Origin: Eledone cirrhosa
Taxonomy: Eukaryota
NCBI GenBank assembly: GCA_964016885.1
Contig: OZ024742.1
Location: 23,560,001 to 23,624,000, forward strand
Direction: 5' to 3'
DNA length: 64,000 nucleotides
Shown: one piece after another, positions 5,828 through 58,438 of the stretch
Numbering within the stretch: the first letter of the stretch is position 1
Layout: each line of letters starts with the position of its first letter
Made by a program: the position numbers and the translations under genes
Notes under the pieces: model-generated
What the model was told of the DNA's origin: nothing
Seen by the model: only the letters and a program-made list of their open reading frames with translations
Databases searched by the model: none

Positions 5828-6763
5828 GAATAAGGTTAATATATATCTGAGGGTACTATGTACCCCCGGAAATATATAGTGTGTCTATGATTTAAGGTGG
5901 TTCTATGGTAATAATTTGATATACCAGAACTTAATATCAAGATAAGCAGAACAAGTAAAATTCAACCAATTTTTCAAAATAAATCAAAATTAATATACAA
6001 TTAAAATTAATCAAAATTAAAAAATATAATATAAATATTTACCTATTCAAATGGCCCTAACTGTACAGTTTCACGTTGCAAAACATTAGATATGTTTTGC
6101 AACGTGAAACTGTACAGTTAGGGCCATTTGAATAGGTAAATATTTATATTATATTTTTTAATTTTGATTAATTTTAATTGTATATTAATTTTGATTTATT
6201 TTGAAAAATTGGTTGAATTTTACTTGTTCTGCTTATCTTGATATTAAGTTCTGGTATATCAAATTATTACCATAGAACCACCTTAAATCATAGACACACT
6301 ATATATTTCCGGGGGTACATTGTACCCTCAGATATATATTGACCTTATTCAATATTCTCCAAGTATGTAGAGAAAAATCCTGTCGTTCTATCTAGTTGCT
6401 AAATATCTTTTTTGGTAGCGATCATAGACGACCAGTCTACGATTTCCCGCCTTCACTATACACCAACGTATTTATGGGTCACTTTCACGACCTTTCAGAC
6501 CTGTATTAGTTGGAGTGAGGTCATATATTTTATCGTTCCTGGGGTTTTTAACCCTAGGATAGGAAAATGCTTCTCTGATGATCTTTGCTTTTCCATTAAT
6601 ATCCACGTGATATCTAATGTTTTGCAACGTGAAACTGTACAGTTAGGGCCATTTGAATAGGTAAATATTTATATTATATTTTTTAATTTTGAGTAATTTT
6701 AATTGTATATTAATTTTGATTTATTTTGAAAAATTGGTTGAATTTTACTTGTTCTGCTTATCT

Positions 6764-6768
<5 letters not shown>
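5828..6768 (+). mobile_element. Retrozyme/pLTR-like insertion (family C): inverted partial copy plus 525-bp monomer plus partial repeat
   Basis: 5832-6088 is the reverse complement of 6092-6350; 6617-6768 repeats 6092-6243 (period 525); TA flanks. Confidence 0.8.
6569..6649 (+). ncRNA. Type I hammerhead ribozyme, family C
   Basis: GCUUCU-CUGAUGA(6575)-long stem II (UUGC/GCAA, CAUUA/UAAUG, AUAUC/GAUAU)-GAA-ACUGUACAGU-U-AGGGC; predicted cut after 6644 (GUU). Confidence 0.75.
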
Positions 6769-6804
<36 letters not shown>

Positions 6805-6834: not shown

Positions 6835-6876
<42 letters not shown>

Positions 6877-6880
<4 letters not shown>

Positions 6881-7082
6881 TGAAATAAACAACATAAGAT
6901 AATTATTTCATTCACCAGTGGTTTCTTGAAGACAGATGTTGTATCTGTCTTCAGTCGTCAGGATGGATAAAAAAGACATGGTGTTTTTATTAAATATGGA
7001 TTTGAAAATAAAATTCATGGAATATGAAAGTGAGGCTGAAAAAACAGGCGAAAAGGAAATAGGTGAAAAAAATAATAAAAAA
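6877..7082 (-). mobile_element. Family D left arm (inverted copy of 8695-8912) with degraded hammerhead
   Basis: Reverse complement of 8695-8912; the hammerhead at ~6907-6966 has GUG at the cleavage triplet and stem I mismatches. Confidence 0.75.
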
Positions 7083-7089
7083 TATATAT

Positions 7090-8673
7090 ATATGAAGACA
7101 AACATAGAATATTCGAAAATATTCTGTATGTTTATAATAAACATTTTGAAGACCTAATCGCTATAGAATAGAATACGTCACGTATTACAATTTGAGATTC
7201 TCGATAAAAGCAAGGGAAGTAACCTACGCGTTTCATTCTTATTAGAAATCATCAGGATTACATATCCAATGCTTTTATCGAGAATCTCAAATTGTAATAC
7301 GTGACGTATTCTATTCTATAGCGATTAGGTCTTCAAAATGTTTATTATAAACATAGAAGAATATTTTCGAATATTCTATGTTTGTCTTCACATATATATC
7401 GCTATTTCAGAGCATTAAATCCAAATTATAATTTCTGCCGGACCGGCTACCGCTCTTTCAAACCAGTTCCTGTACACAGCTAAGTATTCTATAAGTCTCT
7501 AGCTGTGTCGTTCTCGATAAAAGCATTGGATATGTAATCCTGATGATTTCTAATAAGAATGAAACGCGTAGGTTACTTCCCTTGCTTTTATCGAGAATCT
7601 CAAATTGTAATACGTGACGTATTCTATTCTATAGCGATTAGGTCTTCAAAATGTTTATTATAAACATACAGAATATTTTCGAATATTCTATGTTTGTCTT
7701 CACATATATATCGCTATTTCAGAGCATTAAATCCAAATTCTAATTTCTGCCGGACCGGCTACCGCTCTTTCAAACCAGTTCCTGTACACAGCTAAGTATT
7801 CTATAAGTCTCTAGCTGTGTCGTTCTCGATAAAAGCATTGGATATGTAATCCTGATGATTTCTAATAAGAATGAAACGCGTAGGTTACTTCCCTTGCTTT
7901 TATCGAGAATCTCAAATTGTAATACGTGACGTATTCTATTCTATAGCGATTAGGTCTTCAAAATGTTTATTATAAACATACAGAATATTTTCGAATATTC
8001 TATGTTTGTCTTCACATATATATCGCTATTTCAGAGCATTAAATCCAAATTCTAATTTCTGCCGGACCGGCTACCGCTCTTTCAAACCAGTTCCTGTACA
8101 CAGCTAAGTATTCTATAAGTCTCTAGCTGTGTCGTTCTCGATAAAAGCATTGGATATGTAATCCTGATGATTTCTAATAAGAATGAAACGCGTAGGTTAC
8201 TTCCCTTGCTTTTATCGAGAATCTCAAATTGTAATACGTGACGTATTCTATTCTATAGCGATTAGGTCTTCAAAATGTTTATTATAAACATACAGAATAT
8301 TTTCGAATATTCTATGTTTGTCTTCACATATATATCGCTATTTCAGAGCGTTAAATCCAAATTCTAATTTCTGCCGGACCGGCTACCGCTCTTTCAAACC
8401 AGTTCCTGTACACAGCTAAGTATTCTATAAGTCTCTAGCTGTGTCGTTCTCGATAAAAGCATTGGATATGTAATCCTGATGATTTCTAATAAGAATGAAA
8501 CGCGTAGGTTACTTCCCTTGCTTTTATCGAGAATCTCAAATTGTAATACGTGACGTATTCTATTCTATAGCGATTAGGTCTTCAAAATGTTTATTATAAA
8601 CATACAGAATATTTTCGAATATTCTATGTTTGTCTTCACATATATATCGCTATTTCAGAGCATTAAATCCAAA
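7090..8673 (+). repeat. Retrozyme-like tandem array 1 (family E): 312-bp monomer, ~4.5 sense copies plus inverted 5' piece
   Basis: Hammerheads start at 7534, 7846, 8158 and 8470 (period 312); 7090-7270 is an inverted partial copy with a minus-strand hammerhead at 7219-7261; TA flanks. Confidence 0.92.
7534..7576 (+). ncRNA. Minimal type I hammerhead ribozyme, family E (also 7846-7888, 8158-8200, 8470-8512 on +; 7219-7261 on -)
   Basis: GUAAUC-CUGAUGA-U UUCU aaua AGAA U-GAA-ACGCGU-A-GGUUAC; predicted cut after GUA at 7570; stem I is extended by the outer 15-bp pair UUCUCGAUAAAAGCA/UGCUUUUAUCGAGAA. Confidence 0.88.
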
Positions 8674-8823
8674 TATATATATATATATATATAAATATTT
8701 TTTATTATTTTTTTATTATTTTTTTCCCCTATTTCCTTTTCGCCGGTTTTTTTTCAGCCTCACTTTCATATTTCCAAAATTTTATTTTCAAATCCATAAT
8801 TAATAAAAACACCATGATTTTTA

Positions 8824-8881
8824 TTCATTCTGACGACTGAAGACAGATACATCTGTCTTCAAGAAACCACTGGTAAATGAA
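8824..8881 (+). ncRNA. Type I hammerhead ribozyme, family D
   Basis: UUCAUU-CUGACGA-C UGAAGACAGAU ac AUCUGUCUUCA A-GAA-ACC acu GGU-A-AAUGAA; predicted cut after 8875; inside the right arm 8695-8912. Confidence 0.85.
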
Positions 8882-8975
8882 ATAATTATCTTATGTTGTT
8901 TATTACATAACTAATAAGCTCTGTAGCCTACATAGAGCATTCTTTTTTCCTGTACCTTTCCGACGGAAGTTCTTC

Positions 8976-9033
<58 letters not shown>

Positions 9034-9035
<2 letters not shown>

Positions 9036-9949
9036 TAGCGGTGGTACCCGGCGTTGCACGGGATAATGTATTTTGCAACGCGAGCCGTCAACAGACCTAA
9101 TCGTAGAAAAAATGCATGCATGGACAATATGTAAAGAAAATAAACCGAATACTCTGATGGCTGCATAATCTTTAAGATTTTCCTCGATGAGGCAGGAAAA
9201 AATGCTGATTTTCACCTAATGCCCTAGGGGATAAAAAAAATGAATTTTTTTATATACATAATATGCCTTGAAATTTCGGGAAAATCGGCGAGATGTAACG
9301 CTCCCATAAATCCCTAAAAAGCTGAAAAAATGAAGTTTTTCACCTAATACGGGCCCTAGACCATAACAAGTTGGATTTTCTTTGCTCACTGTATGAAGAA
9401 CAGACTGACTAATACACAGTTACAATTTCAAGGAAATCGGTCTGACTTAACGCCTAAAAAAACACCTAAAAAGCTTTAAAAGCGCAGTTTTTCACCTAAT
9501 GAGGGCCCTAGGAGATCAAAAAGTCGACATTTTTTATGTGCATAAAACTCCGTCAATCATAAGTAATAACATGTAAAGTTTGAAAAACATCGGTTGGGTA
9601 CTTCTCGAGTTTTAGGGATTCAAACTCACAGACACACACACAGACAGACATCCTCATGGACGTGGCGTAATGCAGACAGCCAGACATAAAGACAGATATT
9701 ATAAGGGCGCGACGTTATATGTATGTATCTATCTAAAAATAGAAAGACTAAGAATGATAGAGAGAGCTCACTAAATCGCCTAATGCGGTCCCTAGGTGAT
9801 TGAAAATTTGAAATTGTTTTTGCTCAGAACATTCCCTGAAACATAAGTATTACATGTGTAATGTTTGAAAACAGTCGGTTGGGTGGATCTCGAGTTTTAA
9901 GGATTGAAACTCACACACGCACAGACATCCTCAGTTTTATATATATAGA
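9034..9949 (+). mobile_element. Non-autonomous Helitron/Helentron-like element
   Basis: Starts TACTAG..ACCCGGCGTTGCACGGG (subterminal hairpin), has internal repeats, and ends cagacagaca...ttttatatatatagac; this layout is recalled from HINE-like elements. Confidence 0.55.
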
Positions 9950-10480
9950 CTAGCAGAAAACCATCCGGTGGGCGGTTTTCTGCTAGCAGATCTAGTGTAT
10001 ATACTGATACTGTTGAGATTTGGATGAGATATTGAACAAATCAAACGTATTAATCAAATCCCGCAGCTCCAGACTGATATTATGGAACTGCGCAATCTGA
10101 TTAATAAATTACCTCATCAGCAGCAACCTTCTTCAAATGGTCCTTATTATCAGCAGCAACAACCACAAGTTCAATGGCGACCTTCTTCAAACCACAAATT
10201 CAATGGCAACCTTCTTCAAATGGTCCTTGGCATGGTGTCAGGTCAGAACCGCCTTGAACTAGTTACTTCTGGCTCGTGCAAGGTGTCTCTATAGCAACCA
10301 GCGATTCCCTGGGCCTCAGTGACCAAGGCCAGTGGAGAGGGGAAGGTAATGTTTCTATAGCGACAGTGTTTCTCTTAGTAGTACCAAAGTGGAGAAAGGA
10401 AGGGGAAGGTAATATTTCTGTAGCACCTACATTTGAGTTTTAGGGACGGACAGACAGACAAACAGAGAAATGCCCATATA
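9949..10480 (+). mobile_element. Second Helentron-like non-autonomous element; similar start at 34175
   Basis: Begins with the hairpin CTAGCAGAAAACC...GGTTTTCTGCTAG and ends gacggacagacagacaaacagagaaat; the same start hairpin occurs at 34175-34217. Confidence 0.45.
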
Positions 10481-10484
10481 TTTC

Positions 10485-10530
<46 letters not shown>

Positions 10531-10535
<5 letters not shown>

Positions 10536-13500
10536 ATAAATGCTCTGAAATAGCGATATATATGTGAATATAGACATAGAATATTCGAAAATATTCTGTA
10601 TGTTTATAATAAACATTTTGAAGACCTAATCGCTATAGAATAGAATACGTCACGTATTACAATTAGATTCTCGATAAAAGCAAGGGAAGTAATCTACGCG
10701 TTTCATTCTTGTTAGAAATCATCAGGACTACATATCCAGTGCTTTTATCGAGAATGACACAGCTAGAGACTTATAGAATACTTAGCTGTGTACAGGAACT
10801 GGTTTGAAAGAGCGGTTGCCGGTCCGGCAGAAATTAGAAATTGGAATAAATGCTCTGAAATAGCGATATATATGTGAATATAGACATAGAATATTCGAAA
10901 ATATTCTGTATGTTTATAATAAACATTTTGAAGACCTAATCGCTATAGAATAGAATACGTCACGTATTACAATTAGATTCTCGATAAAAGCAAGGGAAGT
11001 AATCTACGCGTTTCATTCTTGTTAGAAATCATCAGGACTACATATCCAGTGCTTTTATCGAGAATGACACAGCTAGAGACTTATAGAATACTTAGCTGTG
11101 TACAGGAACTGGTTTGAAAGAGCGGTTGCCGGTCCGGCAGAAATTAGAAATTGGAACAAATGCTCTGAAATAGCGATATATATGTGAATATAGACATAGA
11201 ATATTCGAAAATATTCTGTATGTTTATAATAAACATTTTGAAGACCTAATCGCTATAGAATAGAATACGTCACGTATTACAATTAGATTCTCGATAAAAG
11301 CAAGGGAAGTAATCTACGCGTTTCATTCTTGTTAGAAATCATCAGGACTACATATCCAGTGCTTTTATCGAGAATGACACAGCTAGAGACTTATAGAATA
11401 CTTAGCTGTGTACAGGAACTGGTTTGAAAGAGCGGTTGCCGGTCCGGCAGAAATTAGAAATTGGAATAAATGCTCTGAAATAGCGATATATATGTGAATA
11501 TAGACATAGAATATTCGAAAATATTCTGTATGTTTATAATAAACATTTTGAAGACCTAATCGCTATAGAATAGAATACGTCACGTATTACAATTAGATTC
11601 TCGATAAAAGCAAGGGAAGTAATCTACGCGTTTCATTCTTGTTAGAAATCATCAGGACTACATATCCAGTGCTTTTATCGAGAATGACACAGCTAGAGAC
11701 TTATAGAATACTTAGCTGTGTACAGGAACTGGTTTGAAAGAGCGGTTGCCGGTCCGGCAGAAATTAGAAATTGGAATAAATGCTCTGAAATAGCGATATA
11801 TATGTGAATATAGACATAGAATATTCGAAAATATTCTGTATGTTTATAATAAACATTTTGAAGACCTAATCGCTATAGAATAGAATACGTCACGTATTAC
11901 AATTAGATTCTCGATAAAAGCAAGGGAAGTAATCTACGCGTTTCATTCTTGTTAGAAATCATCAGGACTACATATCCAGTGCTTTTATCGAGAATGACAC
12001 AGCTAGAGACTTATAGAATACTTAGCTGTGTACAGGAACTGGTTTGAAAGAGCGGTTGCCGGTCCGGCAGAAATTAGAAATTGGAATAAATGCTCTGAAA
12101 TAGCGATATATATGTGAATATAGACATAGAATATTCGAAAATATTCTGTATGTTTATAATAAACATTTTGAAGACCTAATCGCTATAGAATAGAATACGT
12201 CACGTATTACAATTAGATTCTCGATAAAAGCAAGGGAAGTAATCTACGCGTTTCATTCTTGTTAGAAATCATCAGGACTACATATCCAGTGCTTTTATCG
12301 AGAATGACACAGCTAGAGACTAATAGAATACTTAGCTGTGTACAGGAACTGGTTTGAAAGAGCGGTTGCCGGTCCGGCTGAAATTAGAAATTGGAATAAA
12401 TGCTCTGAAATAGCGATATATATGTGAATATAGACATAGAATATTCGAAAATATTCTGTATGTTTATAATAAACATTTTGAAGACCTAATCGCTATAGAA
12501 TAGAATACGTCACGTATTACAATTAGATTCTCGATAAAAGCAAGGGAAGTAATCTACGCGTTTCATTCTTGTTAGAAATCATCAGGACTACATATCCAGT
12601 GCTTTTATCGAGAATGACACAGCTAGAGACTTATAGAATACTTAGCTGTGTACAGGAACTGGTTTGAAAGAGCGGTTGCCGGTCCGGCAGAAATTAGAAA
12701 TTGGAATAAATGCTCTGAAATAGCGATATATATGTGAATATAGACATAGAATATTCGAAAATATTCTGTATGTTTATAATAAACATTTTGAAGACCTAAT
12801 CGCTATAGAATAGAATACGTCACGTATTACAATTAGATTCTCGATAAAAGCAAGGGAAGTAATCTACGCGTTTCATTCTTGTTAGAAATCATCAGGACTA
12901 CATATCCAGTGCTTTTATCGAGAATGACACAGCTAGAGACTTATAGAATACTTAGCTGTGTACAGGAACTGGTTTGAAAGAGCGGTTGCCGGTCCGGCAG
13001 AAATTAGAAATTGGAATAAATGCTCTGAAATAGCGATATATATGTGAATATAGACATAGAATATTCGAAAATATTCTGTATGTTTATAATAAACATTTTG
13101 AAGACCTAATCGCTATAGAATAGAATACGTCACGTATTACAATTAGATTCTCGATAAAAGCAAGGGAAGTAATCTACGCGTTTCATTCTTGTTAGAAATC
13201 ATCAGGACTACATATCCAGTGCTTTTATCGAGAATGACACAGCTAGAGACTTATAGAATACTTAGCTGTGTACAGGAACTGGTTTGAAAGAGCGGTTGCC
13301 GGTCCGGCAGAAATTAGAAATTGGAATAAATGCTCTGAAATAGCGATATATATGTGAATATAGACATAGAATATTCGAAAATATTCTGTATGTTTATAAT
13401 AAACATTTTGAAGACCTAATCGCTATAGAATAGAATACGTCACGTATTACAATTAGATTCTCGATAAGAGCAAGGGAAGTAATCTACGCGTTTCATTCTT

Positions 13501-14479
13501 GTTAGAAATCATCAGGACTACATATCCAGTGCTTTTATCGAGAATGACACAGCTAGAGACTTATAGAATACTTAGCTGTGTACAGGAACTGGTTTGAAAG
13601 AGCGGTTGCCGGTCCGGCAGAAATTAGAAATTGGAATAAATGCTCTGAAATAGCGATATATATGTGAATATAGACATAGAATATTCGAAAATATTCTGTA
13701 TGTTTATAATAAACATTTTGAAGACCTAATCGCTATAGAATAGAATACGTCACGTATTACAATTAGATTCTCGATAAAAGCAAGGGAAGTAATCTACGCG
13801 TTTCATTCAAAATGTTTATTATAAACATACAGAATATTTTCGAATATTCTATGTCTATATTCACATATATATCGCTATTTCAGAGCATTTATTCCAATTT
13901 CTAATTTCTGCCGGACCGGCAACCGCTCTTTCAAACCAGTTCCTGTACACAGCTAAGTATTCTATAAGTCTCTAGCTGTGTCATTCTCGATAAAAGCACT
14001 GGATATGTAGTCCTGATGATTTCTAACAAGAATGAAACGCGTAGATTACTTCCCTTGCTTTTATCGAGAATCTAATTGTAATACGTGACGTATTCTATTC
14101 TATAGCGATTAGGTCTTCAAAATGTTTATTATAAACATACAGAATATTTTCGAATATTCTATGTCTATATTCACATATATATCGCTATTTCAGAGCATTT
14201 ATTCCAATTTCTAATTTCTGCCGGACCGGCAACCGCTCTTTCAAACCAGTTCCTGTACACAGCTAAGTATTCTATAAGTCTCTAGCTGTGTCATTCTCGA
14301 TAAAAGCACTGGATATGTAGTCCTGATGATTTCTAACAAGAATGAAACGCGTAGATTACTTCCCTTGCTTTTATCGAGAATCTAATTGTAATACGTGACG
14401 TATTCTATTCTATAGCGATTAGGTCTTCAAAATGTTTATTATAAACATACAGAATATTTTCGAATATTCTATGTCTATA

Positions 14480-14483
<4 letters not shown>
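10531..14483 (-). repeat. Retrozyme-like tandem array 2 (family E variant): 310-bp monomer, ~10.6 copies on minus plus ~2.2 inverted copies
   Basis: Units start at 10531, 10841 ... 13631 (period 310); orientation flips at ~13808; only about four substitutions seen among the units (11157, 12322, 12379, 13469). Confidence 0.95.
10689..10731 (-). ncRNA. Minimal type I hammerhead, family E variant (10 minus copies every 310 bp to 13479-13521; plus copies 14007-14049 and 14317-14359)
   Basis: GUAGUC-CUGAUGA-U UUCU aaca AGAA U-GAA-ACGCGU-A-GAUUAC. Confidence 0.88.
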
Positions 14484-14509
<26 letters not shown>

Positions 14510-14695: not shown

Positions 14696-14814
14696 AGAAC
14701 AAAATTATTATTAATGTTTTGCTGTTCATAACAATTGGAATTGAAAAATTACTTTTGAAATTATTAGTTATTTCATTAATGCTTAGATATGTAAAAATGA
14801 AGCAATGTTTCTAA

Positions 14815-15007
14815 TAATTGTTTCTACTTTTGGCACAAGGCCAGCTATTACCCAGTACATTACTGGTACTTTATTTTATCGACCCCGTGAGGATGAAAGG
14901 TAAAGTTAACCTCGGCGGTATTTGAACTCAGAACGTAAAGGGACGTAACTCCATGCTATGAAGCATGGTGTCCGACTCTCTACAGATTCTGCCAATCCAC
15001 CACCCTA
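14815..15007 (-). mobile_element. tRNA-derived SINE (resembles Octopus OK-type SINE)
   Basis: A-box-like TGGCAGAATC and B-box GAGTTCAAAT followed by the conserved body gttaactttgcctttcatcc..ggggtcgataaaataaagtaccag; ~18 further copies or fragments in the window. Confidence 0.8.
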
Positions 15008-15280
15008 ATATCTGTACGCAACGAGGGAGTGAGAGGGGAGAGAAATAAAGGCAGAGGTGAAATGACGAAGTGACTCTCTCCTCCTCCGTCTCCCCTTTCG
15101 TCACAGCGATAGAGAGGAGGAATGTTAGTGGGTTACAAAGAGAAAGAGTGAGAGTGAGAGAGACAGACAGACTAAAAGAGAGGGATAGCTGGAGAGAGAG
15201 AGATAGCAACAGATACAGTACAGTAGCTAAGGGATGTATATATATTTCTGTGTGTATATATATATACATTTCTATGTGTG

Positions 15281-20225: not shown

Positions 20226-20280
<55 letters not shown>

Positions 20281-20286
<6 letters not shown>

Positions 20287-20696
20287 GATATTAAATAACT
20301 GGAAACTATATTTATAAAACCATATTTATTCTATTATATATATTTCAATGGTACCAAACCTTTGGTACGCTTTCATCAGTTAAAATACGAAGTGTGTTTT
20401 ATAAATGTTGACATAACCAAGGAAAATACCTTACCAGTTCAAGTTTTCCCTGGTATGGTATTTTCCTTGGTAATGTAAAAATTTATAAAACACACTTCGT
20501 ATTTTATCTGAAGAAAGCGTACCAAAATTTTGGTACCCTTGAAATATATATAATAGAATAAATATGGTTTTATAAATATAGTTTCCAATTATTTAATATC
20601 ATTGAATATTAAACTCCAGAAATGCTGTTGAGTCGTCAGAATCAGTTATAAACATTTATATTTGTTGAATTACCAACAAATTGAATATTCCTTCTG

Positions 20697-21852: not shown

Positions 21853-22824
21853 TTTCCGCTGTTACACGTCTATTTCGTTCTTACTGCTTCCTCTTTCTCT
21901 GTATCTTTACCCTCTCTAGCAGTCACTCTCTCTGTTAGCCTCTTCCTCACCCTTCACTCACTCATTCTCTGTTACTACCTCTCCTCCTCCTCCTTCTTCC
22001 CGTTTGACCTGTGCGTAATTCTTTTCTTTCGCACCCTTGGTCTGGCAGGTCGCTTTTTTCTCTCTCTCGTCTACGATTTCACAGAACTTACGTTCACCGA
22101 AATCACAGACTAGATTCCTTCTTCCTCCCGTTAGACCTGTACGGAAATCCTTCCTTGCTTACATTCCAACCAGGTTTGATGGTCTTTATTCTCTCTCGTT
22201 CACGATTTCACCGAATTTAAATTCATAGAAATTTGGGACTTGACTCCTTCTTCCTCACTTTTCGTTGCTTCACCATTTTGTTTGTTTACACTCGTGTTCC
22301 CTTTATTTACGTGTCCCAACGACTTTTTTTAGCCGTTGCTCGCACCAACCGGAGGTATATGGTCTTTAAAGCGATGAAATACCAATGATGGTTGGAATAT
22401 CACTGATGAAGGACTAACTTTATTCATATATATATATATACATATATGAATAAAGTTAGTCCTTCATCAGTGATCTTCCAACCATCATTGGTATTTCATC
22501 GCTTTAAAGACCATATACCTCCGGTTGGTGCGAGCAACGGCTAAAAAAGTCGTTGGGACACGTAAATAAAGGGGACACGAGAGTGTAAAGAAACAAAGAT
22601 GGTAAAGCAACGAAAAGTGAGGAAGAAGGAGTCAAGTCCCAAATTTCCATGAATATAAGTTCGGTGAAATCGTGAACGAGAGAGAATAATGACCATCAAA
22701 CCTGGTTGAAATGTGAGCAAGGAAGGAATTCCGTACAGGTCTAACGGGAGGAAGAAGGAATCTAGTCTGTGAATTCGGTGAACATAAGTTCTGTGAAATC
22801 GTATACGAGAGAGAGAAAAAAAGC

Positions 22825-24007: not shown

Positions 24008-27000
24008 CTACAGCCGCATGACCAGAGTAAGCCTACTCACACGGGCCATTCTCACCACATTCACCCACCTTTCAGCAAATGTACTGTGAGGGGGGGGGGC
24101 AACACTTCTCTCTCCACCCTCACCTTCCTTTCCAAGTGAAACTTGAAAAAGTTGATGAGGGATTGGCCGAAGAGAAAAGTGTTTATCTTCAGTCCTTTCA
24201 ACCTCGTTCACCATACAACTTCTTTCGCTACTCCCACCAGACGTGGAAAATTGCCTGCCCTTCCTGGCCAAAAGAAGATGGTGGGTCGATCTTCACTATG
24301 GACTCGGCCGATAGCCGGATCCGTTCTACACGCGACAACAGCTGTTCAACATAACTCCACAAGTCAGTAATGCACGGACACTGGACGAGTGCGTGCAGAA
24401 AGGTTTCGTCGCTCTGCGCGCATCTCGGGCAGGTCCGTCTGACAGTACTTCCGTGCCTGTAGAGTTTATCTCTAACTGGCAGTGCCGGTAGCACTACCAA
24501 GCGAGGGATTTGGGGAAATTATCCATCGTCCCCGGCTCGAAAGTCCTCCGGAACAGACTGGTTAGTTCGACTCCCAGAGCCTCTCCGAGTGCGTTGTCGC
24601 ACCTTCCCACCACTAATCATCTATAGAACTCGAGAGTGGAAGTTCCACTGACCGCATTGCCCGACTGGTAGAGTGCAGTGAGTGCCTGGCAACATTCCAG
24701 ATGCCAGTCACCCAGTCTCGGTCTCTTCTTGACCCAGGACTGCAGCTCAGTCAAAGAAACGAGCTGCGGAAAGGCCCGTCTGACAAACGGCGACCACACC
24801 TGTTCACCGTTTAGGCAGAATATCTGGAGATGCCGCAGCCTCAGCTCGTGTCTGCGCATCATTAACCACGGCATGCCCAGCCCCCCACGTAGAGGGTGCT
24901 GACAGCAGATGGACCGCCTCACCAGCAGAACCTGACCCCTCCACAAGAATTTGAAGAGGAGCCGCTCCAAGATGGCGAGGCGCGAACGGGGGCAAGAGAC
25001 GACGGTTAGACGGTAGTAGATGACGGACGTGATGTACGCTTTCGCCACCTCCGCCCGACCTTTCAGTGATAGCTTCCTCCCAGCCCATTTCTGGGTGAGA
25101 CTGGCTAGCCTGCCCGTCACCTCGTCCCAATTCTTATCCACCTGGAGGTCTGGCCCTGACTAAACCCCGAGCAACTTTACCGGTCCGTCCGTCCAGCGCC
25201 TAACGTCGCTGTTGGACCTCATGGACTTGCCTCTCCAGGTGCCGACTTGCAAGCCCACCGACCTTTCCGGGTTAAGTTTTGCTCCCGTCAATCTTTCATA
25301 TTCCTCCAATAAGTTTCCGACCACCTCGATTTCTGAGGTGTCCGACACCATCACGGTGATGTCGTCCGCATATGCCGACATGGCCTTTCCGGGTCCCGGT
25401 TCGAGCGGGATGCCCTGCAACAGCTCCAGCTTCCGCAGTAAAGGCTCGAGAGTCAATATGTACAGAAGGGAGGAGAGAGGGCACCCTTGACGGACCGATC
25501 GGGAGACCTGAAACGGTTCCCAGAGGTGGCCATTAATTTTGACCACCGCGCAGGTGCCGCTGTGCATTGCAGCGATCCAGCTTCTGAAGACGGGGCCGAA
25601 GCCAGCCGCCTTGAGGACAGCCTCTAGGTACCGATGGTCGACCCTATTGAATGCTTTCGATTGATCTAAATTGATCAGTTCCCCACCGAAGCCAGGTTTA
25701 CACACTACCCTCTCTATGATGTATCGCATTAGGTGGAGGTTGTCGTGTATGGACCTGTTTGGGATTGCGCAAATTTGCGCCTCCCCAACCAAATCACCGA
25801 CGACAAGCGCCAACCTCTTCGGTAACACCCTGGCCAAAATCTTAAACTCTGTGTTGAGCAGAATTATGGTTCTGAAATTGTCTAATGTGTCCCTCTTGTT
25901 CTCGTCTTTCCTTATCAGCGTCACTACGCCCCGGCTCACAGAACTGGGAATTCTCCCGTTTTGCTGCCAGTTGCAGTAGAGGGCTTCGAGGAGATTGGAG
26001 AACAAGTCTGGCATATTTACGTAAATTTCGTAGAGAAGACCATCAAAACCGGGTGACTTGCGCCTCATGCAGCCGACAAGGGCATCCTGAATCTCGGCTG
26101 AAGTAATTGGCCTTTCGCAGCGCCCACGTCAGCCGTCGAATGTTGCGGCAAGCCATCGAGGTAGGGACTGAATTTCGCCACTGTCTCTGACCCGCCACTC
26201 TCCCCGAACAACCGAGCAAAGTGCTGGCGAAAGGCCTCATACATCCGCTTGGAATCGCTTATCTCGTGTCCGTCTCGGTCCGCCAAAGACCGAATTGTGG
26301 TTTTATTACCACGCTGCGCCTCTGCGACACGGTCCCATCGAACAGCTTTGGCTCCCTCGTTATTCAGCGCACGCACCTTAGCTCTGACAATGCAAACTTC
26401 GTGTTTCGCATTGAAGAAATGGTCTAATCTCATTCTCGCCGCTAGCACGTCAGTTGCAATGCCACTACCAATAGCCTCGTCTAACTTATGTACCAACTCC
26501 CCCTCCTTTCTATTTTTCTCTAACGCTACATCTTCGACATTACTCTAATCTCTCTTTTGAGAGCCCCCCACCATCTATTGTTGACGACTCCCCCTGTCAA
26601 CTTTTGTTAACTAAATTGTTGACCTGGCCCCGGTAAGCCTTACGTGCCGGAAATGACATGTTTAGCTTCCTGTAACCAGGTCCTAACCTACGCGTCTTAT
26701 CTAGGTCGACCATACAGATCACAAACTTGGGTTCTGAATAGGCGACCGTTTTAATACGTGGACAGCTTACACTATTTCTGTCAATTTCCTAATGAATAGC
26801 CTGTCTATATACGATCTAGATGACCCTATGCGGTTAGTCCAGGTCCACATTGGCGTATTAGGGAAATCTAGTCGGTACCTGTCAGACAGTTGGAACTGAC
26901 TGATCAGGTTTTTGAGGCTTTTGCACCCCCGCTCATAGCGGATACTCCCACACAGTCACAGCGTGCGTCTAAGATGCCGTTCCAGTCCACCTCTAACAGT

Positions 27001-29174: not shown

Positions 29175-29459
29175 GTTTTTTTTTTCTCGATAATTTTTTA
29201 AAATGTAAAAAAGTTCAAATATTTGGGCCAAAAGGCACAAATATTATTCTTTCCCCTTCACAGGGCAAAGCCCAAGGGCTTGTATGCCTTACACAACAAC
29301 AAAACAATCAATAAATTAGTGTTGATAGGTAAATATTTGAACTTACGGGAGCGAGCAAAAAGACGTCCGTTCAGACTCAATAATAATAATAATAATAATA
29401 ATAATTCTACTATTACTACTACTAATACTCTTACTATACATTATTAATATTATTATTAC

Positions 29460-30535
29460 CATGGTGGATTTGCAGTATCGGTAGAGTGTCGGACGCCATG
29501 CTTTGCAGCAAAGAGTTGCGGCCCTTTATGGTCTGAGTTCAAATTCCGCCGAGGTTAACTTTGCTTTCCATCATTACGGGGTCGATAAAATAAAGTACCA
29601 GTAATACACTTGGATAATTGCTGACCTTGTGCCAAAAGTAGAAACAATTATTTCCATGGATGGTAGGGTAGGTTATTGGCAGTACCGGTAGAGCGTCGGA
29701 CACCATGCTTTGCAGCATCGATTTACGGGCCTTTCAAGTCTGAGTTCAAATCCTACCGTGGTTACCTTTGCTTTTCATCCTTACGGCATCGATACTATAC
29801 AGTTCCAATAATGCACTGGGGTCGATTTAATCGATTTTCCCAGCCCCCAAATTGCTGGCCTTTTGCCTATAGTAGAAATAATTATTATAATCGTTGTTGT
29901 TTGAAATCAAATCAGGGCGTGGTTAGGTTTGCCTTTTATCCTCCCGAGATCGATCAAATAAAGCACCAGTAACATAACGTGGTCTATTTAATCGACTATC
30001 CTCTTACCCTAAATTAATGGCCTCGGGTTACACTAGAAATCATTATTAATATTATTGTAAGGGCGGTGAATTGGCAGTATCGGTAGAGGGTCGGACGCCA
30101 TGCTTTGACGCATAGATTTCAGCCCTTGCCATTCTAAGTTCAAATCCTGTCGAGGTTAACTTTGCCTTTCATCCTTACGGGGTCGATAAAATAAAGTACC
30201 AGTAATACACTATTTAATAGCCGGCCTTGTGCCTAACGTAGAAACAATTATTAATATTATTGTATAAATAAAATTTTCTAGTATAGGCCCGAGGTCAGTA
30301 ATGTAGGGGTTGAGCAAAGTCGATTAAATCGACCCCAGTATCGTAAGGGCGGTGGATTGGCAGTATCGGTAGACGGTCTGACGCCATGCTTTGGAGCAAA
30401 GAGTTATGGCCCTTTATGGTCTGAATTCAAATCCCGGCGAGGTTAACTTTGCCTTTCATCCTTACGGAATCGATAAAATAAAGTACCAGTAATACACTGG
30501 GATAATTGCTGGCCTTGTGCCAAAAGTAGAAACTT
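29460..30535 (+). mobile_element. Cluster of ~5 head-to-tail OK-type SINE copies
   Basis: Repeated tggcagtatcggtagag..tcggacgccatgc..gagttcaaat..gttaactttgcctttcatcc units at ~29460, 29660, 29915 (partial), 30059 and 30345. Confidence 0.85.
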
Positions 30536-30827
30536 TTAATAGTATTGTTTTTTGTTGCTGTCCTCAACGTCGTTAGATTTACTTTCTCGTGAAATCATTG
30601 TAATCCAAGCTCCATCTTTCTTTTTCCGATTATGCAGTAAGTTTTTCCTTGTTGAATGACATTTCATTTCACTGTACTTGGCGCATGTTTATTATATAGT
30701 TATCAATTCTATTGCTAGCTAAATCAACAGAGCGTTAGCTAAACTTACTGTAAGTAAATGTCAGTATGATGAGGAGGCAGTATGGCATATTTTGAAGATA
30801 GATTGTGGAAAAATGAAAGATGTTGAT

Positions 30828-31822: not shown

Positions 31823-32718
<896 letters not shown>

Positions 32719-33354
32719 AAATATATATAATACACACGTGAAGGGAAGGGAAGACAGGAAGGGAAGACAGAAATATATATATATAATACACACGTGTGTG
32801 TATGTGTGTGTATGCGCGCGCGTTACACATTCTCCTGCCAGCTCCTTCTTCATACACTCTGAAGAATTGGACTATTGCATGCCTGGAACCAAGAGACACA
32901 CACATCAGAATCTAACGAACTTAACCTTTCTAAGAATAACCAATTCACTATTATAAAGCAGAATCTAGAGAGAAAAACAACAAAGAGTTATTATTAATAT
33001 TTAAATTTTAATTGTATTAATAATTGTTTCTACTTTAGGCACAAGGCCAGCAATTATCCAGTGCATTACTGGTACTTTATTTTATAACCCTTTATTATTG
33101 ATGACATGTGTTAATATACGCAATAGAATATAGAAGAATATATAATATAGAACATTTATATGTTGATCGAGCTGTATAATAAACGATGGGGCTCAGTCAC
33201 CTAATACAATATATTGATATGTACTTAACATTTACTACACAACCATTCCACTAAGACGCTTGATTACAGAATCTCCGGTTGCTTGTTACTTGCCACTCCT
33301 ATGGGTATTCTTCAATATTTCTTTTGCATTTCATCTTCTCTCTCTCTCTCTCTA

Positions 33355-36730: not shown

Positions 36731-37699
36731 GCAGCATGGTCGATTGTTTAAGAAGTTCACCTCGCAATCTGTATGTCCTGTGCTCGATCCATTACCGGAC
36801 ATCTTAGAGAAGGTGTCATGTACCATAGCCAGGAGTGGACAATTTCATCGGGGTGGGGGATTTGGCAGACGGAAACTGCTTGGAAGTCTGTCTGATAGAC
36901 CTTGATAATAATTCAAAGAGTGTAATGTTTCTGAATCTAACTCCCTAAAGATTACTCTAAAACGTTTAAGAACAACATAAGCCTCAATGGCTACCATATA
37001 TGGTTCTTGATTTAGGCACAAGACCAACAATTTGGGGGATGGGAAAATCGAATTAACCGATCCCCGTGCGTTACTGGTACTTTATTTTATCAACCTTGTA
37101 AGGATGAAAAGCAAAGCTAACCTTGACGGGGTTTGAAATCAGAATTTAATGGGCTGAAACTACATGCCATAAAGCATGGTATACAACGCTCTACCGATTT
37201 TGCCAATCCACCGCCCTCAATGTCTATTGTATATATGAAACACTGGTATAGACGCCTGGTTGGTACGAAATAATGCCTGAAATCAGATAACTACTATTTA
37301 TTGGGTGACCAGTAAGAAAGATCGATCGTTGTCTTCTGCATCAAGCACATTATTTCAAATATTCAAAGTGTAGGAAATCGTTGGAAACATTCATTCTTCA
37401 AAAGAAGTGAATGCCCATATAAGGTCAACTAAGGTTTATCTATTATCTAAGGTTCGTCCATTATATAGCGTTCATGTATTTTTTTTCTCTCTCTCTCTTA
37501 TGATGTACTATGATTGTGATCATCTATTGACTCTCATATTTCTTTTTCAAGTTGAAATAATTTAAACAATTAATGGCTTCCAGCTTTGTTTATTAGCCAT
37601 GGTGAGAGTTTAATAGTTCCGGCTGCGTCATAGCAGAATTTGAGAGCAGATTTAAGAGGAACCCATTAACTCCTTCAGTACAAAATTTAGAAACATTAT

Positions 37700-38984: not shown

Positions 38985-39198
38985 TTATTTCTACTTTTGG
39001 CACAAGGCCAGCAATTACCCCAGTGCAATTATTTCTACTTTTGGCACAAGGCCAGCAATTACCCCAGTACTTTATTTTATCGACCCCGTAGGGATGAAAG
39101 GCAAAGTTAACCTAGGCGGGATTTGAACTCAGAATGACAAGGGCCGTACCTCTGTGTCAAAGCATGGAGTCCGACCCTCTACCGATACTGCCAATCCA
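38985..39198 (-). mobile_element. OK-type SINE with a duplicated 41-bp tail; further copies at ~33915, 35745, 37010, 38705, 42600, 43530, 56475, 59170 (-) and 40390, 40925, 55450 (+)
   Basis: Same consensus as 14815-15007; aattatttctacttttggcacaaggccagcaattaccccagt occurs twice in tandem. Confidence 0.8.
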
Positions 39199-41839
39199 AA
39201 TTCCTGTCTCAATATAATAAGTATACGTTATGCACTGCAGTGGATTAGACAACTGTCCTCTCTTTACGTAAGAAATCAATACATTAAGTATTTTGAAATC
39301 ATATTTCTTTACGTTAGAATTTTTTGAAACGTCTCTGTTATGATCTCGATATTTTGATCCTCAGATCCAATGTTATTTGTATTTGTTTAGTTTGTTTACT
39401 TGCTTTAGCAGTTCATCATATAATATATAATATAAGTTTATAAAACATATTCTGAGAAGAAATTGCCTGCATTGAAATTTTGCAATAAATATCTTATTTA
39501 GAAAATAATATTGCTCGGAGCATAATCTAGGCTGGATATAAACAATTAGTATTCTAATTAATCTGATCAACAATCACAGTTAGACAACTAATTAACCTCT
39601 CTTGAAAAAAGAATTAAGAAACTCAATTAGCTTAGGTCGGCTAAAGTTAACCTGTTTTAACATAGAAAGAATACGTAATTGGAATTGCTCGCAATATCTC
39701 GTTAATTTAGATGTAGGTCATTATGTATTGCTGATCATATTTACCAATATATCTATAGAATACGGCAATAACACCTCTACAGAAATATGTTACATCATCA
39801 AACGTGTTGCTTCCCACGTTGGTTGGTCTTTTAGTCGTTGTTTCTTTGTTTTCTCAATTACTGTGAAACGGTTAATCAGGAAGTTCGTATTAACAATGGC
39901 GGTCACAACATGGCTGAATGATTAAGAAATTCTCTTTGTAAATGTTATGTCCGAGGTTCGATCCAAATGCGTGGCATGTTTGGCAAGAATCATTTACCAT
40001 AGGATCAACAAGATTCTTGAATTGTGAGTGAAATTATGCGGACGGAAACTGTTTGAAATCCCGTCGCATGCATTGAACTTGTAATTTGTAATTCAAGGAC
40101 AAGTTTACCACACATTCTGTCTCACTGAATCTCCCTAAGAACTACATTAAGGATGTTTCTTCTGTTTTGTGGAAAACGTAACCACTTAATGTCTATTACA
40201 TGAGCATGCTGTTTCATTCATAAAACAACTGGAACATTATGTGGCTTGGTTAATTTAGTGGCTCCTTGAAATATTTGACCCGAAATTTCTGCCTACTCAT
40301 TGTCATTTAATTCAAACTATTGTAATAAACGTTTTTCGTTTCTATTTGATATTATTCTTTAAAGACGTTCTTATCTTCATGGGAGATGGGTAGTGGATAG
40401 GAAGTATCGGTAACGTATCGAACAACATAATCTGCGGCATATAGTTACGACCCTTTACGTTCTGACTTCATATCCCGCCAAAGTTAGCTTTGCCTTTCAT
40501 CCTTACGTTGTCGATCAAATAAAATAGAAGTTAAATACTTAATTGGATATAATCCATATTCCCCTCCCCCCACATATTGGCGGGAAGCCTATTGGTTAGG
40601 ATGTTGGACTCACGATGCTAATAAAGGGGAAATCCTGGAATGGGTTTTCATTTGACTTGTTGTGAAAAACATTTAATTTCACGTTACTCCAGTATACTCA
40701 GCAAAAATATGTACCAGCAATAGCTGGAGGTTTGATCTTGCGATGGACTAGCGTCCTGTTCAGGGGGAATTATTTTACTCTCATTTGATTAACGCCACAG
40801 AAACCATGATAAGTACTTGTTTGATGAGCCACCGAACTCAACGGCCGTCCTTTTCTCAAAAATTGTTGGTTGTGTGCCAAGTTTAGAAATAACTATTAAT
40901 CAACATTTTTTATCAGTTAATGTTGGTTGCGTTCTGAGTTCAAATTCCGCTGAGGTTACATTTACTTTCCATCATTTCAGGGTCAATAGAATAAAGTACC
41001 AGTAAATTACTGGGGTCAATATAATCAGATTTCCCGTTCTTCCAAATTACTGGCCATGTGCCAACGCTAGAAAGACTTATTATATATCGTTTTCAGTTCA
41101 ATAAATATACTACTACATCTTTTTGTTGGCAAAAACTCTGTTTTCTGCACTCAAATTATACAGACGATATTTTTCTATGCAATATTTTGGCCTCGACATT
41201 AACTAAATATGTGTAAAGAATTTGGTAAGAAGAATAGTAGACAATGAAAGCATATAGAATGTTGATTTGCCGAATTTCAGGAAGTGAATCAGAATCTTGC
41301 TTATGCAAAAGCTGTATTGACAATGCAGCTCAAATATAGAACGATTCACCTACAGCTATAACATATTGTAATCAGATTATACAAATTTGATTAGCCAGTT
41401 CGGGAGAGTAACTCAGCCCTTCGGAATTTTATGCTACAATATGCTTGTGTTGATGTTGGAATGTTGGTTCAGTAAATAAAGTTCGTTAATTATGTGGTTT
41501 TGTGAATACAATAATAGAGTAATTAGATGAGGAGAGGTTGTACGTAATAAATTTGGGCAAAATAACTACTTCAGTTTGTTTGCCAACCAACGTATCAGAG
41601 ATGCTAATTCCTGACAGTGCTTTCAGTGATATGTTAAAGTTATCACTTCTCAAGTCTTTTACTAAAATGTCTAGGATATTTAACACGTTCTCACCTTTTG
41701 ATCTGACGTAATTTTGGTCTGCTTGCACACGAATAGAAATATTCAAGTTTCTATTATACGAGGAGTATAAGTACACATTCATGCTCTCTTCTTTTCTCTC
41801 TCTCTCTCTCTCTCGCGTACACTATATCTCCCCCCCTCC

Positions 41840-42415: not shown

Positions 42416-43394
42416 TTCTCTCCCCCTCTTACCCCACCTCTCTATCTATCTCTGTATAAACAGACAAACATCTTTTCATCAACCTCATATCAATAAAACA
42501 AAGTAAGTACCAGTCAAATACTTTCGTTGCTTTAATCAACGATGCCTCACCTCCCCGCGAAATAAAATAATTACTGGACTTGTGTCTAAAGTAAAAACCA
42601 TTATTAATATAATTGTTTCTACTTTAGGCACAAGGCCAGCAATTACCCAGTGCATTACTGGTACTTTATTTTATCGACCCCGTAAGGATGAAAGGCAAAG
42701 TCAACCTCAGCGGGATTTGAACTCAGATCGTAAAGGGATGTAACTATGCTGGAAACCATGGCGTCCGACCCTCTACCGATACTGCCAATAATACTATTAT
42801 TAATATAATATATGTTATATATAAACAGATACACAACATAGAAAAATATATATATTTATAAAAGCCCAAATATCATACAAACCTATTTTTATAATATAAT
42901 ATAATACCTTATCAGGTATTGTACAATATTATATAAATATACGATATATGTCATACATATGTATACTTCAATGCATTGTATTGTCAACAATGACAATTAA
43001 ATAACATGATTAATGGTGGACGTATCAAATAATTTGACGAATAAATTGAATGCTTCGAAAGACAGAGATTATTAATCATGCACCATGTACATAATGTGAT
43101 ACGGAATATAATATATACTGCCTTTATTCCACAGTTATCATAGAGCTTTGCATAAGTTGTAAGAATTCATATTTTTTTCAAGGTGAAATGTTATATACGT
43201 ATGTTGCTATTAGAATACGTATCTACAAAGAGGGATTCATTATATGAGATGGTATTGTATGGTAGAGTCCCGTATGTCCTGGTAGAGTGATAGGAGCGAC
43301 GTATTGACATACGGCATTTCCTGGTCATTTTTAAGGCTGACGGCGCCCAATCTACTCCATGTCTGTACACAATCGATATCTTCCAGATGAGATG

Positions 43395-46535: not shown

Positions 46536-47705
46536 TATATACATAAAAATGATATACATTAAATTAAAGCTTAATACATAAAAACTCCTTAACCATACCT
46601 TTGGGTTTTATCGTGACGATGGTCTAATACTTTCCCATACCACTATAGGCCATAACTTAGATAGATTCAGGAAAGACTTAATAAAAACCTTCGCTAGTTT
46701 TAATCTTGAAATTACTATTGACACTAACCTTTCTAATGTTAATTTTCTAGATATAAACCTAGATCTGCCTACTGCTTCTTATAAATCGTACCATAAACCT
46801 AATGAACATTTAAAATATATAAATAAAGGCTCTTGCCATCCTCCTACAGTTTTTAAAAATCTTATCCGTAATATTAGCCGTAGGATCTCCACCCTCTCTT
46901 CCTCAGAAGCTATTTTCAATAAGGCATCCCCCTACTATAATAAAGCCCTTCAAAATAGCGGATATAGCGAACCGATTAAGTACATACCCAACAATACTAA
47001 CTCCTTTAAACATAATAATAGGAATAGAAAAATAATCTGGTTCACATCCCCCTACTCTCTAGCAGTTAAAACTAATGTAAGCAAAAAATTCCTAGAGCTC
47101 TTAGATAAACATTTCCCTAGAACACATAGATACTGTAAAACCTTCAATAGAAACTGTGTCAAAATCAGCTACTCCAGCTACCCCTATTAAATCTTATATC
47201 CTCAATAAGAAAATACCCAGAGAACATCAAAATTGCTCCTGTAGAGTCAAAAGTGAATGCCCATTACAAGGTAAATGCAACACCAACGCCATTGTATATG
47301 CGGCTAAAGTGACAACCACCAACAACAACCTACCAGCCACCAGCGAACGATATGTGGGTACAAGACTAATTCAAAACGCGTTATTACTCACATGTCACAT
47401 CTTTCCGACATCCTGAAAAAAGATTTACAACAGCTCTGGCTAGAAGAATATGGGATTTGAAAGACCAAGGTATACCATATAAATTAGATTGGTCAATTTT
47501 GAACCAATCTAAAGAATATGCAAGAGGAACAAGTAGATGCGCTCTCTGCATAAGTGAAAAATATTGTATTTTACAGAACATTAAATCACCAAAAACCTGC
47601 CTAAATGCAAAAACAAAAAATTTCACCAGTTGCCCACACATGAAATCACACTTGCTTTCCAGCTCATATAAACTTAAATCACTTTCAGATACTTATCCTC
47701 CATAA
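46536..47705 (+). pseudogene. Penelope-like element ORF, 5'-truncated: RT C-terminal half plus GIY-YIG endonuclease
   Basis: FYRDDGL, VNFLDI, SCHPP, RKIIWFTSPYS, HFP, FNRNCVKISYS; CSCRVKSECPLQGKC..IVYAAKV..YVG; CALCISEKYCIL..LNAK..SCPH; at least two frameshifts. Confidence 0.92.
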
Positions 47706-48491
47706 ACTCTTGTTCTTCACTTTCCTTAACTTACCTTCGTTACAGACTTCTCTTTCTGATTTACTTTTATTTTTATTTTTAACTTTATTTTTACTTCATA
47801 TCTACTAGTGACCCCCCCCCCCCTGCTTTTTGATTCACTTACCTTATATCTTCACAATTTTACATATTTTACTTCCCCCATTTCTTTCACTACCTAATAT
47901 CGCTTGTCACTTGTGTTTTCAACTGCAGATATATTATGTTGTCCCTCAGCCGCTTTATGTATGTTTACTTGCATATAATTTGTACTCATTTATTCATACG
48001 GCTGGTTTTTATATTGTATGTATGCTTGTAAGTGTGCATATGTGTGTATACGTGTTTGTATATGTATACGAATGCACTCGTATGTGCGCGTGTATGTGAT
48101 GTGTATATGTGTGTGTGTATGTGTGTTTTTATATCTATGTTTTTTACATACTTATATATATCTGTGTATATATATATATATGTGTATATACGGAAAAAAT
48201 GAAACGAAATTTCATTTCCCACTCTTAGTACGGCTGTTACTTAAATATAAGTATGTATATGTACATACATATATGTATACAGACGTACAGTAGTATGTAT
48301 ATATACATACATGCACACATATATATATATGTACGTATGGATTCACTAAACATTTATTATAATGCTCGGTGTGTTTGTAAACAAACATCCCGTATTAAGC
48401 CGTAGTGTCTAGCAACCACCGTTGCTCGTTTGTTCAACACTGACAAAGGAACGCTGTACTAGTTTCAACGTTGTTAGCTATGTATGTATGT

Positions 48492-50159: not shown

Positions 50160-50520
50160 TTTTCCGTTTAATGTTTTCGGTGCGCCCGGCCGATTAACTC
50201 ACTCGACATGCAAATTGGGCTGCTCAGCCTTTAATATGCATAAGGAAAATATATACTTTCAGACGTTCAATCATCGGGCAGGAAGGTATGCGGTGCTGAC
50301 GATAGCTAATAAGCTCGAAATTAGTACATCGTTCCCTTGTCAGTGTTGAACAAAAAGTGCAACGATGCTTGCTAAACACTGTACGGCTTAATTCGGGATG
50401 TTTGTTTACAAACATACCGAGCATTATAATAAATGTTCGATGAATACATGCGTACATATATATATGTGTGCATGTATGTATATATATACATACTACTGTA
50501 CGTTTGTATACATATATACT
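50160..50520 (+). mobile_element. Diverged family K monomer with hammerhead at 50290-50332; an inverted partial copy lies at ~48195-48480
   Basis: GCGGUG-CUGACGA-U AGCU aaua AGCU C-GAA-AU ua GU-A-CAUCGU; the body aligns by eye to 58060-58480. Confidence 0.75.

Positions 50521-51616
<1,096 letters not shown>

Positions 51617-58403: not shown

Positions 58404-58438
<35 letters not shown>

Follow-up and report, generated by a model that had tools for sequence, protein, structure and literature searches.

Two-armed insertions of a hammerhead retrozyme in the Eledone cirrhosa genome point to mobilisation by a Penelope-like element

Introduction

Metazoan retrozymes without long terminal repeats (non-LTR retrozymes) are dispersed, non-coding tandem repeats with a low-GC unit of about 300 bp and one type I hammerhead per unit, and they co-occur with Penelope-like elements (PLEs) (PMC7229834; bioRxiv 10.64898/2026.07.22.740005). 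All of these traits are shared by two tandem arrays at 7090-14483 of the window analysed here, a 64,000-nucleotide stretch of the Eledone cirrhosa genome (assembly GCA_964016885.1, contig OZ024742.1, positions 23,560,001 to 23,624,000, forward strand) to whose first letter all coordinates below refer. The ribozymes of the arrays also display the weak palindromic stem III reported for axolotl HHR_Amex1 and the U-U at the base of stem II reported for HHR_Amex2. Metazoan retrozymes are described, in the available parts of those reports, as plain tandems, whereas the Eledone copies have an inverted two-arm form with fixed ends, a tail and a target preference. Similarly, the link of metazoan retrozymes to PLEs was drawn from co-occurrence and homology to PLE pseudo-LTRs (pLTRs), while here it is drawn from the insertion footprint, no pLTR homology being found in the five PLE families compared. 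Expression and circles have been demonstrated for the metazoan retrozymes and are putative in the present family. Mobilisation of retrozymes by PLEs via a circle has already been proposed (PMC7229834; bioRxiv 10.64898/2026.07.22.740005; PMC4209133), and both the class and the general idea of PLE mobilisation are already known. Priming and integration were left as a hypothesis in PMC7229834, and the mechanisms remain to be elucidated according to the accessible text of bioRxiv 10.64898/2026.07.22.740005.

The second group of close counterparts comprises endonuclease-containing PLEs, which in the accounts available (PMC8557442, PMC3846280, PMC11167929, PMC4209133) resemble the Eledone insertions in the inverted, 5'-truncated head-to-head copy, the 30-40-nt tail at one end, the (TA)n targets, the two internal start sites of reverse transcriptase (RT) and the hammerhead upstream of the ends. 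In contrast, the retrozyme has no open reading frame (ORF), its unit measures 310-312 nt rather than 3-4 kb, and both of its arms are multimers. The tail appears in those accounts as optional or often at one end, whereas here it is near-strictly one per insertion, autonomous copies included. In vitro work with a purified PLE protein found cutting as well as extension of both strands and two internal RNA start sites bracketing the tail, and a dimer has been modelled (PMC11167929). Chlamys elements such as MRC1 (PMC8557442) are also non-autonomous PLE derivatives with multicopy head-to-tail insertions; unlike the Eledone family they have 3' sequence in common with autonomous partners, and canonical hammerheads are described as missing from most Chlamys elements. 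The origin of PLE tandem and inverted structures was named an open problem in the same source. No report of two-arm retrozyme insertions, of a one-short-one-long end rule or of PLE twin initiation was found in the literature searched, a scope outside which subscription journals, Repbase, Dfam and paper supplements lay. In L1 twin priming both target ends prime on one RNA and the inverted arms are joined by microhomology, the second site being variable and the arms non-overlapping. Here, in contrast, both sites are fixed, with about 30 nt between them, and the arms are repeated copies of the same sequence.

Results and Discussion

Architecture of the two arrays

Tandem Repeats Finder delimited three runs, at 7270-8674 (period 312, 4.5 copies), 10530-13808 (period 310, 10.6 copies) and 13806-14492 (period 310, 2.2 copies). 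A type I descriptor found exactly 17 hammerheads in 7090-14483, one at each of the 17 unit positions that cover the motif, against a mean of 0.01 matches in 100 dinucleotide-type shuffles of the window. Five belong to array 1 (four on the plus strand and one on the minus strand) and 12 to array 2 (ten minus, two plus). The GC content of 10001-14000 is 0.34-0.35, within the retrozyme range (unit of about 170-400 nt, GC under 45%). ORFs of at least 40 amino acids are absent from the interior of the arrays, the listed ORFs touching array edges only, and an RT and GIY-YIG ORF is absent from the repeat unit. An initial annotation, made from the letters, had read the locus as 17 type I hammerheads in 312- and 310-bp units with no meaningful ORF, with further hairpins and with a palindromic ACGCGU; each of these elements is recovered here. 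The Rfam models that it had put forward as a check gave no match to the arrays at the gathering threshold, and Hammerhead_HH9 produced only a sub-threshold hit (20.6 bits against a cut-off of 52, E 0.02) that aligns weakly over the right positions.

Both arrays consist of two tandem arms arranged head-to-head in (TA)n. All four outer ends are RNA-sense 3' ends running into (TA)n, and they fall at two places in the unit, the short end A at position ~134-141 and the long end B at ~165-168, 27-34 nt further on, where unit position 1 is set at 7571, immediately past the cut site. The extra 27-34 nt correspond to a PLE tail, described as about 30-40 nt at one end. The features are as follows.

7084..7284, minus strand: inverted arm of array 1, 0.64 unit with one hammerhead (7261-7219); outer end is short end A
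7270..8674, plus strand: main arm of array 1, 4.5 units of 312 bp; outer end is long end B
7534-7576, 7846-7888, 8158-8200 and 8470-8512, plus strand: hammerheads of the array 1 main arm
7270..7284, no strand: head-to-head junction of array 1, a 15-nt overlap within the extended stem I inverted repeat
7534..7576, plus strand: representative type I hammerhead (6-bp stem I, CUGAUGA, GAAA, GUA), the first plus-strand copy, predicted cut 3' of 7570
7631..7717 (unit 61-147), plus strand: conserved multi-hairpin domain containing end A; candidate RT-binding signal
8648..8674 (unit 142-168), plus strand: 27-nt tail, at one end of array 1 only
10530..13808, minus strand: long arm of array 2, 10.6 units of 310 bp with ten hammerheads (10731-10689 ... 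13521-13479)
13806..14492, plus strand: short arm of array 2, 2.2 units with hammerheads at 14007-14049 and 14317-14359; outer end A at 14485-14492

In array 1 the minus arm ends at unit ~134-141 and the plus arm at 168, end A reading ATATATAT at 7084-7091 and blending into the target TA. In array 2 the polarity is reversed, with the minus arm ending at B (tail at about 10530-10555) and the plus arm at A, and the arms overlap by 3 nt (TTC) at 13806-13808. The two arrays are independent insertions of two subfamilies that are 95.8% identical, and array 2 contains four single-unit changes in about 12.8 units. The near identity of about 13 units had been attributed to one rolling-circle reverse-transcription event. 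Array 2 is indeed one integration, but it comprises two opposed cDNAs (10.6 and 2.2 units) beginning at two different fixed RNA positions, not one.

The one-short-one-long end rule

Insertions fetched from the rest of the genome display the same anatomy. An initial set of 40 (the two window arrays and 38 of 39 loci scored by similarity search) includes 30 with one A and one B end, one with two B ends, two with an odd end, one that is gapped and six that are single-armed; 26 further insertions comprise 19 A+B, two odd and five single-armed cases. The query for the latter spanned the array 2 junction and biased them to junctions near unit positions 73 and 297; they were used for ends and haplotypes and excluded from junction statistics. 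Of the classifiable fetched two-arm loci, 49 of 50 are A+B. Sampling by position rather than by similarity gave the same picture: with the first 100 A ends and 78 B ends of C1:0-178 Mb, all 51 head-to-head end pairs lying at most 16 kb apart were A+B (27 AB, 24 BA; no A+A or B+B), an outcome of probability about 2e-16 if ends were independent. Four other adjacent end pairs in that interval are differently oriented and none is A+A or B+B. Along C1, 14 position-sampled loci contained 11 two-armed insertions, all A+B; this set, the 51 pairs and the fetched loci overlap in part. The target in the inspected flanks is (TA)n, and the end patterns themselves require TA. The inverted, 5'-truncated head-to-head copy expected of PLE-mobilised sequences is present, together with the one-end tail.

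A young, dispersed family

A 34-letter pattern over the 5' half of the ribozyme has 12,618 exact matches in the 3.0-Gb genome, and end A or end B followed by TA has 1,608 and 1,277 matches, respectively, with no match for any reversed control; these counts are lower bounds. The family amounts to roughly 1,600-2,000 insertions of about 8 units each. Singleton divergence within insertions is 0.16% (202 in 123,798 bases), and the family is a young, dispersed, non-LTR retrozyme family. Confinement of the copies to this locus, which the initial annotation had named as a mark of an ordinary satellite, does not hold, and the same genome-wide evidence supports its proposals of retrozyme identity and PLE mobilisation.

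The domain around end A has four helices that are kept, with compensatory changes, in an older subfamily about 75% identical, and 94% of alignment cells are paired; in the copies inspected this subfamily ends at the same two places. Two-sided changes affect 4 of 26 pairs, and the covariation score exceeds all 500 shuffles and slid controls, in an alignment of 14 related sequences whose relatedness inflates the score. The older subfamily is abundant (loci L095-L104, L113, L146, L176) and combines a different hammerhead with the same hairpin domain and ends; in L098 that hammerhead has a 3-bp stem III and a GUC triplet. A 342-letter contig from a run labelled as another organism, the kind of run being unrecorded, covers the whole unit with 7 differences.

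Ribozyme fold and predicted activity

The 6-bp stem I of the ribozyme is lengthened by an internal loop and a 15-bp helix, stem II opens with a U-U mismatch at its base followed by 4 bp, and stem III consists of one pair and a palindromic CGCG loop (ACGCGU). The core is intact in 464 of 468 copies from the fetched loci, and the monomer folds with z = -4.45. The active monomer fold is predicted at -27.0 kcal/mol against a minimum of -35.8 kcal/mol, and the intermolecular stem III duplex at -9.5 kcal/mol. Ribozymes of this kind are reported to cut as dimers within multimers and to be quiet in monomer circles (PMC4209133). The Eledone hammerheads may self-cleave in the same way.

Template of the insertions

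At two polymorphic sites the two arms of an insertion matched in all 32 loci compared, against a permutation mean of 11.3 and a maximum of 24. In L061, L063, L072, L081, L083, L088, L123, L130 and L134, all units of the two arms carry the same rare variants, for example two in 16/16 units of L130, three in 9/9 of L134 and variants in 8/8 of L123, and in position-sampled held-out loci rare variants are likewise fixed and the units almost invariant. Such variants are private only among 66 loci of >1,600, and the 80 loci sampled do not allow a full distinction between a single molecule and a single source locus. The junctions are scattered round the unit. Among 29 scored loci (L043, L049 and L058 failed anchoring, L033 and L041 were omitted, and L050 was mis-anchored and kept), 15 overlap by at least 2 nt, against 18% for random joins, and eight contain inserted bases, a pattern consistent with the end-joining of two cDNAs made independently.

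In 39 of 49 loci each of the two arms is longer than one unit, and array spans have a median of 7.6 units and reach 20-48 in position-sampled loci. The arms continue through the cleavage site, where inner ends show no enrichment (5 of 58 lie at most 6 nt away, against 2.4 expected, p about 0.10). Starting from A or B, a linear monomer that had been cleaved would provide no more than 134-168 nt, less than the arms that exceed one unit contain. The two arms stop together, to within 10 nt of unit position, in only 1 of 40 retrozyme pairs (2.7 expected), and the lack of a shared 5' stop points to a template without a free 5' end. In P5, an autonomous PLE family described below, 12 of the 40 listed arm pairs have frame lengths at most 10 amino acids apart (1.4 expected), frame length serving as a proxy; this is the outcome expected were both RTs to run off one linear 5' end. 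The circular monomer RNA is proposed from this insertion anatomy, and a circular template for most insertions is probable.

Autonomous PLE families in the same genome

Open RT-endonuclease frames are present in several families. P1 has a 712-amino-acid frame and P2 one of 784 amino acids, with P2 copies about 99.6-99.9% identical. P5 frames reach about 1,280-1,310 amino acids with an Asn-rich insert and a tandem period of about 4.29 kb, and all 150 scored P5 endonuclease matches are 100% identical over 157 amino acids; P5 appears to be expanding now. Sequence searches of the local Pfam and PDB gave no match to the PLE ORFs, whose putative assignment is based on Atlas neighbours (GIY-YIG, HTH_animal, RVT_1), RT- and GIY-YIG-like motifs picked out by eye, and architecture.

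P1, P2 and P5 all display a hammerhead in the terminal repeat and insertion in (TA)n. When both ends are in view (10 P1 loci and 5 P2-type loci were fetched), every two-armed copy has one short and one long end (P1 5/5, P2 3/3, P5 12/12; 20/20 in total), and P5 arms differ by 0.55 changes within insertions versus 3.67 between them. P5 copies are tandem and head-to-head (L161-L168, L177-L189), and in many P5 insertions (L177-L188, L164) the arms stop at most 10 nt apart at their 5' ends, producing near-perfect palindromes with unequal outer ends. The genome holds more PLE families than the five covered by the partner search. Our best guess for the partner is P5, a choice made from age alone. 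Short motifs common to the unit and P5 (ATATCG at the short end and ATTTCAGA in the tail) were considered and set aside as not significant (p 0.21-0.50).

Proposed mechanism

The element is almost certainly a retrozyme, and there is strong reason to regard it as PLE-mobilised. Twin initiation at two sites is likely. The combined scheme, a non-autonomous non-LTR retrozyme mobilised in trans by an endonuclease-containing PLE through twin initiation, rolling-circle copying and end-joining, is on balance the account we favour. Putative transcripts of the arrays would be cut by neighbouring hammerheads, paired through the palindromic stem III, from multimers into 310-312-nt monomers, which would be ligated to circles. 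A lone monomer would hardly form the active fold and may hence persist, a principle taken from PMC4209133. The PLE RT/GIY-YIG protein, probably a dimer, would bind the hairpin domain and cut both strands of (TA)n, a target that is observed and an enzyme that is presumed. Each genomic 3'-OH would then prime a first strand on the same sense RNA, one at A and one at B 27-34 nt downstream; the one-A-one-B rule and the common haplotype are observed, and the use of the same molecule is inferred. Both polymerases would circle the RNA a variable number of times, and the two cDNA ends would be joined through short microhomology or small insertions into two tandem arms lying head-to-head. Some long arms are enlarged further by local duplication. 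There is about an even chance that the insertions reflect a general PLE mechanism, in which a dimeric RT-endonuclease would begin one first-strand cDNA at either end of a double-strand cut, using two fixed sites of a single covalently closed RNA, and both polymerases would roll round that RNA.

The family offers upwards of 1,600 very young records of how one 310-nt template was integrated, under an end rule almost free of exceptions and next to an apparently expanding PLE whose frames are intact. Its anatomy is evidence, independent of pLTR homology, that a retrozyme is mobilised by a PLE, and it provides both a small RNA and a target with which a reconstitution could begin. If true, a general twin-initiation mechanism would jointly explain inverted pLTRs, the tail, partial tandems and the multimers of retrozymes, and its minimal natural substrate would be the 310-nt RNA.

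Several observations weigh against this scheme. On the RNA side, the active fold lies 8.8 kcal/mol above the minimum, the Rfam scores of the hammerheads are below threshold, one of nine retrozyme dimers was cleaved in the experiments reported in bioRxiv 10.64898/2026.07.22.740005, and unprocessed RNA was the dominant in vitro substrate of a PLE protein, with ribozyme cleavage dispensable (PMC11167929). On the partner side, BLAST and local alignment detected no significant similarity between the unit and the pLTRs or tails of P1, P2, P3, P5 and a further family, and PLE tails measure 60-144 nt (about 80, 144 and 60) versus 27-34 nt in the retrozyme. Among the insertions, L031 has two B ends and inverted flanks, 11 of the 66 loci have a single arm, several loci have odd ends, and target-site duplications are unreadable in (TA)n, with matching imperfect tracts on both sides in a few loci such as L035 and L087. 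The arms of 2 of 29 loci are discordant at site 252. In L043, L056 and L064 only some units of an arm carry a variant, which returns at intervals of 2-5 units, and variants are locally duplicated in L058 and L128; these two patterns show that some templates were multimeric or some arrays altered later. The recurring variants are a hint of multimeric templates or circles, or of later exchange.

Alternative explanations

The partial periodic variants of L043, L056 and L064 would be expected if PLE twin initiation took place on a long uncleaved linear multimer, or on two RNAs of one source array, one per protomer. This alternative, which we consider possible but unlikely, also agrees with the dominance of unprocessed RNA in vitro (PMC11167929) and with the predicted weakness of the monomer ribozyme; haplotype concordance fits one source locus equally well, and the private variants are private only within the sampled set. 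However, the units within an insertion are nearly homogeneous (0.16% singletons), the excess of shared 5' stops associated with linear PLE RNA is missing, and arrays copied in this way would shrink at each round unless local growth compensated, whereas spans reach 20-48 units with a median of 7.6. Self-priming on antisense RNA has been proposed for PLEs in PMC3846280, and a single priming event followed by fold-back, in which the first cDNA is copied into the inverted arm, would account directly for the identity of arm haplotypes. Several junctions do lie in natural hairpins (array 1, L037, L051, L063, L150), and 8 of 12 fetched P5 loci, a hand-chosen sample, have near-symmetric junctions. Fold-back requires one arm to contain the other, and is excluded by arm content for 7 of 59 A+B insertions, in which neither arm contains the sequence of the other even with a 35-nt tolerance, and for P5 locus L188, whose tail-less arm extends 212 nt further at the 5' end. 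The short-end arm is moreover the longer one in 22 of 49 loci, and the strict one-A-one-B rule would be left without a reason. The data therefore argue against fold-back self-priming as a general route, and we judge it improbable for this family.

Mobilisation by a LINE-type (long interspersed nuclear element) RT with L1-like twin priming appears more improbable still; LINE RTs are abundant, one lying in the window at 24617-26544, and L1 twin priming with microhomology is established, but the unit shows no evident 3' poly(A) or shared LINE tail. Its two ends lie in (TA)n at fixed internal positions, a pattern found in three PLE families of this genome, and the published PLE anatomy, as far as PMC8557442 describes it, has the same end pattern. 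An ordinary satellite or an assembly palindrome carrying a chance or fossil hammerhead could draw on the local duplication in L058 and L128 and on the inverted flanks of L031, but is scarcely credible: the dispersed ends, more than 1,600 of them, fall at two fixed positions, the arms are unequal and have different flanks, the cores are intact and the structure covaries. As an origin, satellite growth is refuted; it remains as a secondary process.

Other elements in the window

Array 1 was inserted into the centre of an older inverted pair of pLTR fragments with homology to the pLTR of P1. The arms of this pair and the stretches of a SINE-like (short interspersed nuclear element) repeat of about 200 bp, with more than 10 copies that are 70-90% identical, are as follows.

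6875..7090, minus strand: left arm of the older PLE pLTR-derived pair, hammerhead with GUG triplet near 6967; short end
8690..8979, plus strand: right arm of that pair, with a hammerhead at 8824-8881 and the long end, whose tail is ~66 nt; P1 pLTR homologue
14811-15013, 29439-30553, 37015-37225, 39027-39220, 40371-41091, 42593-42810, 55443-56676 and 59161-59382: SINE-like repeat stretches

A second retrozyme-like family forms a 494-bp tandem at 57976-59044; its type I hammerheads are canonical, and their stem III is a palindrome, ACUAGU. These hammerheads are found at 50290-50332, 58183-58225 and 58677-58719, related pieces at 48145-48481 and 57244-57420, and relatives in L113, L120 and L141. 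Hammerhead-like motifs with a long stem II, at 5427, 6569, 20385, 20502, 23141, 31278, 50834 and 51315, are probably derivatives of PLE terminal repeats; several lie within inverted or partial-tandem repeats (5828-6769, 20278-20609, 50596-51473) that end in (TA)n. A frameshifted remnant of a P1-type PLE RT-endonuclease occupies 46594-47702 on the plus strand and is 81-89% identical to intact 712-amino-acid frames, while the LINE-type RT at 24617-26544, on the minus strand, is broken (Pfam RVT_1, E 2.9e-25) and lies in a GC-richer stretch. Long near-perfect DNA palindromes are present at 5828-6350, 22054-22821, 31857-32719 and 56672-56988, only the first being linked to a hammerhead family.

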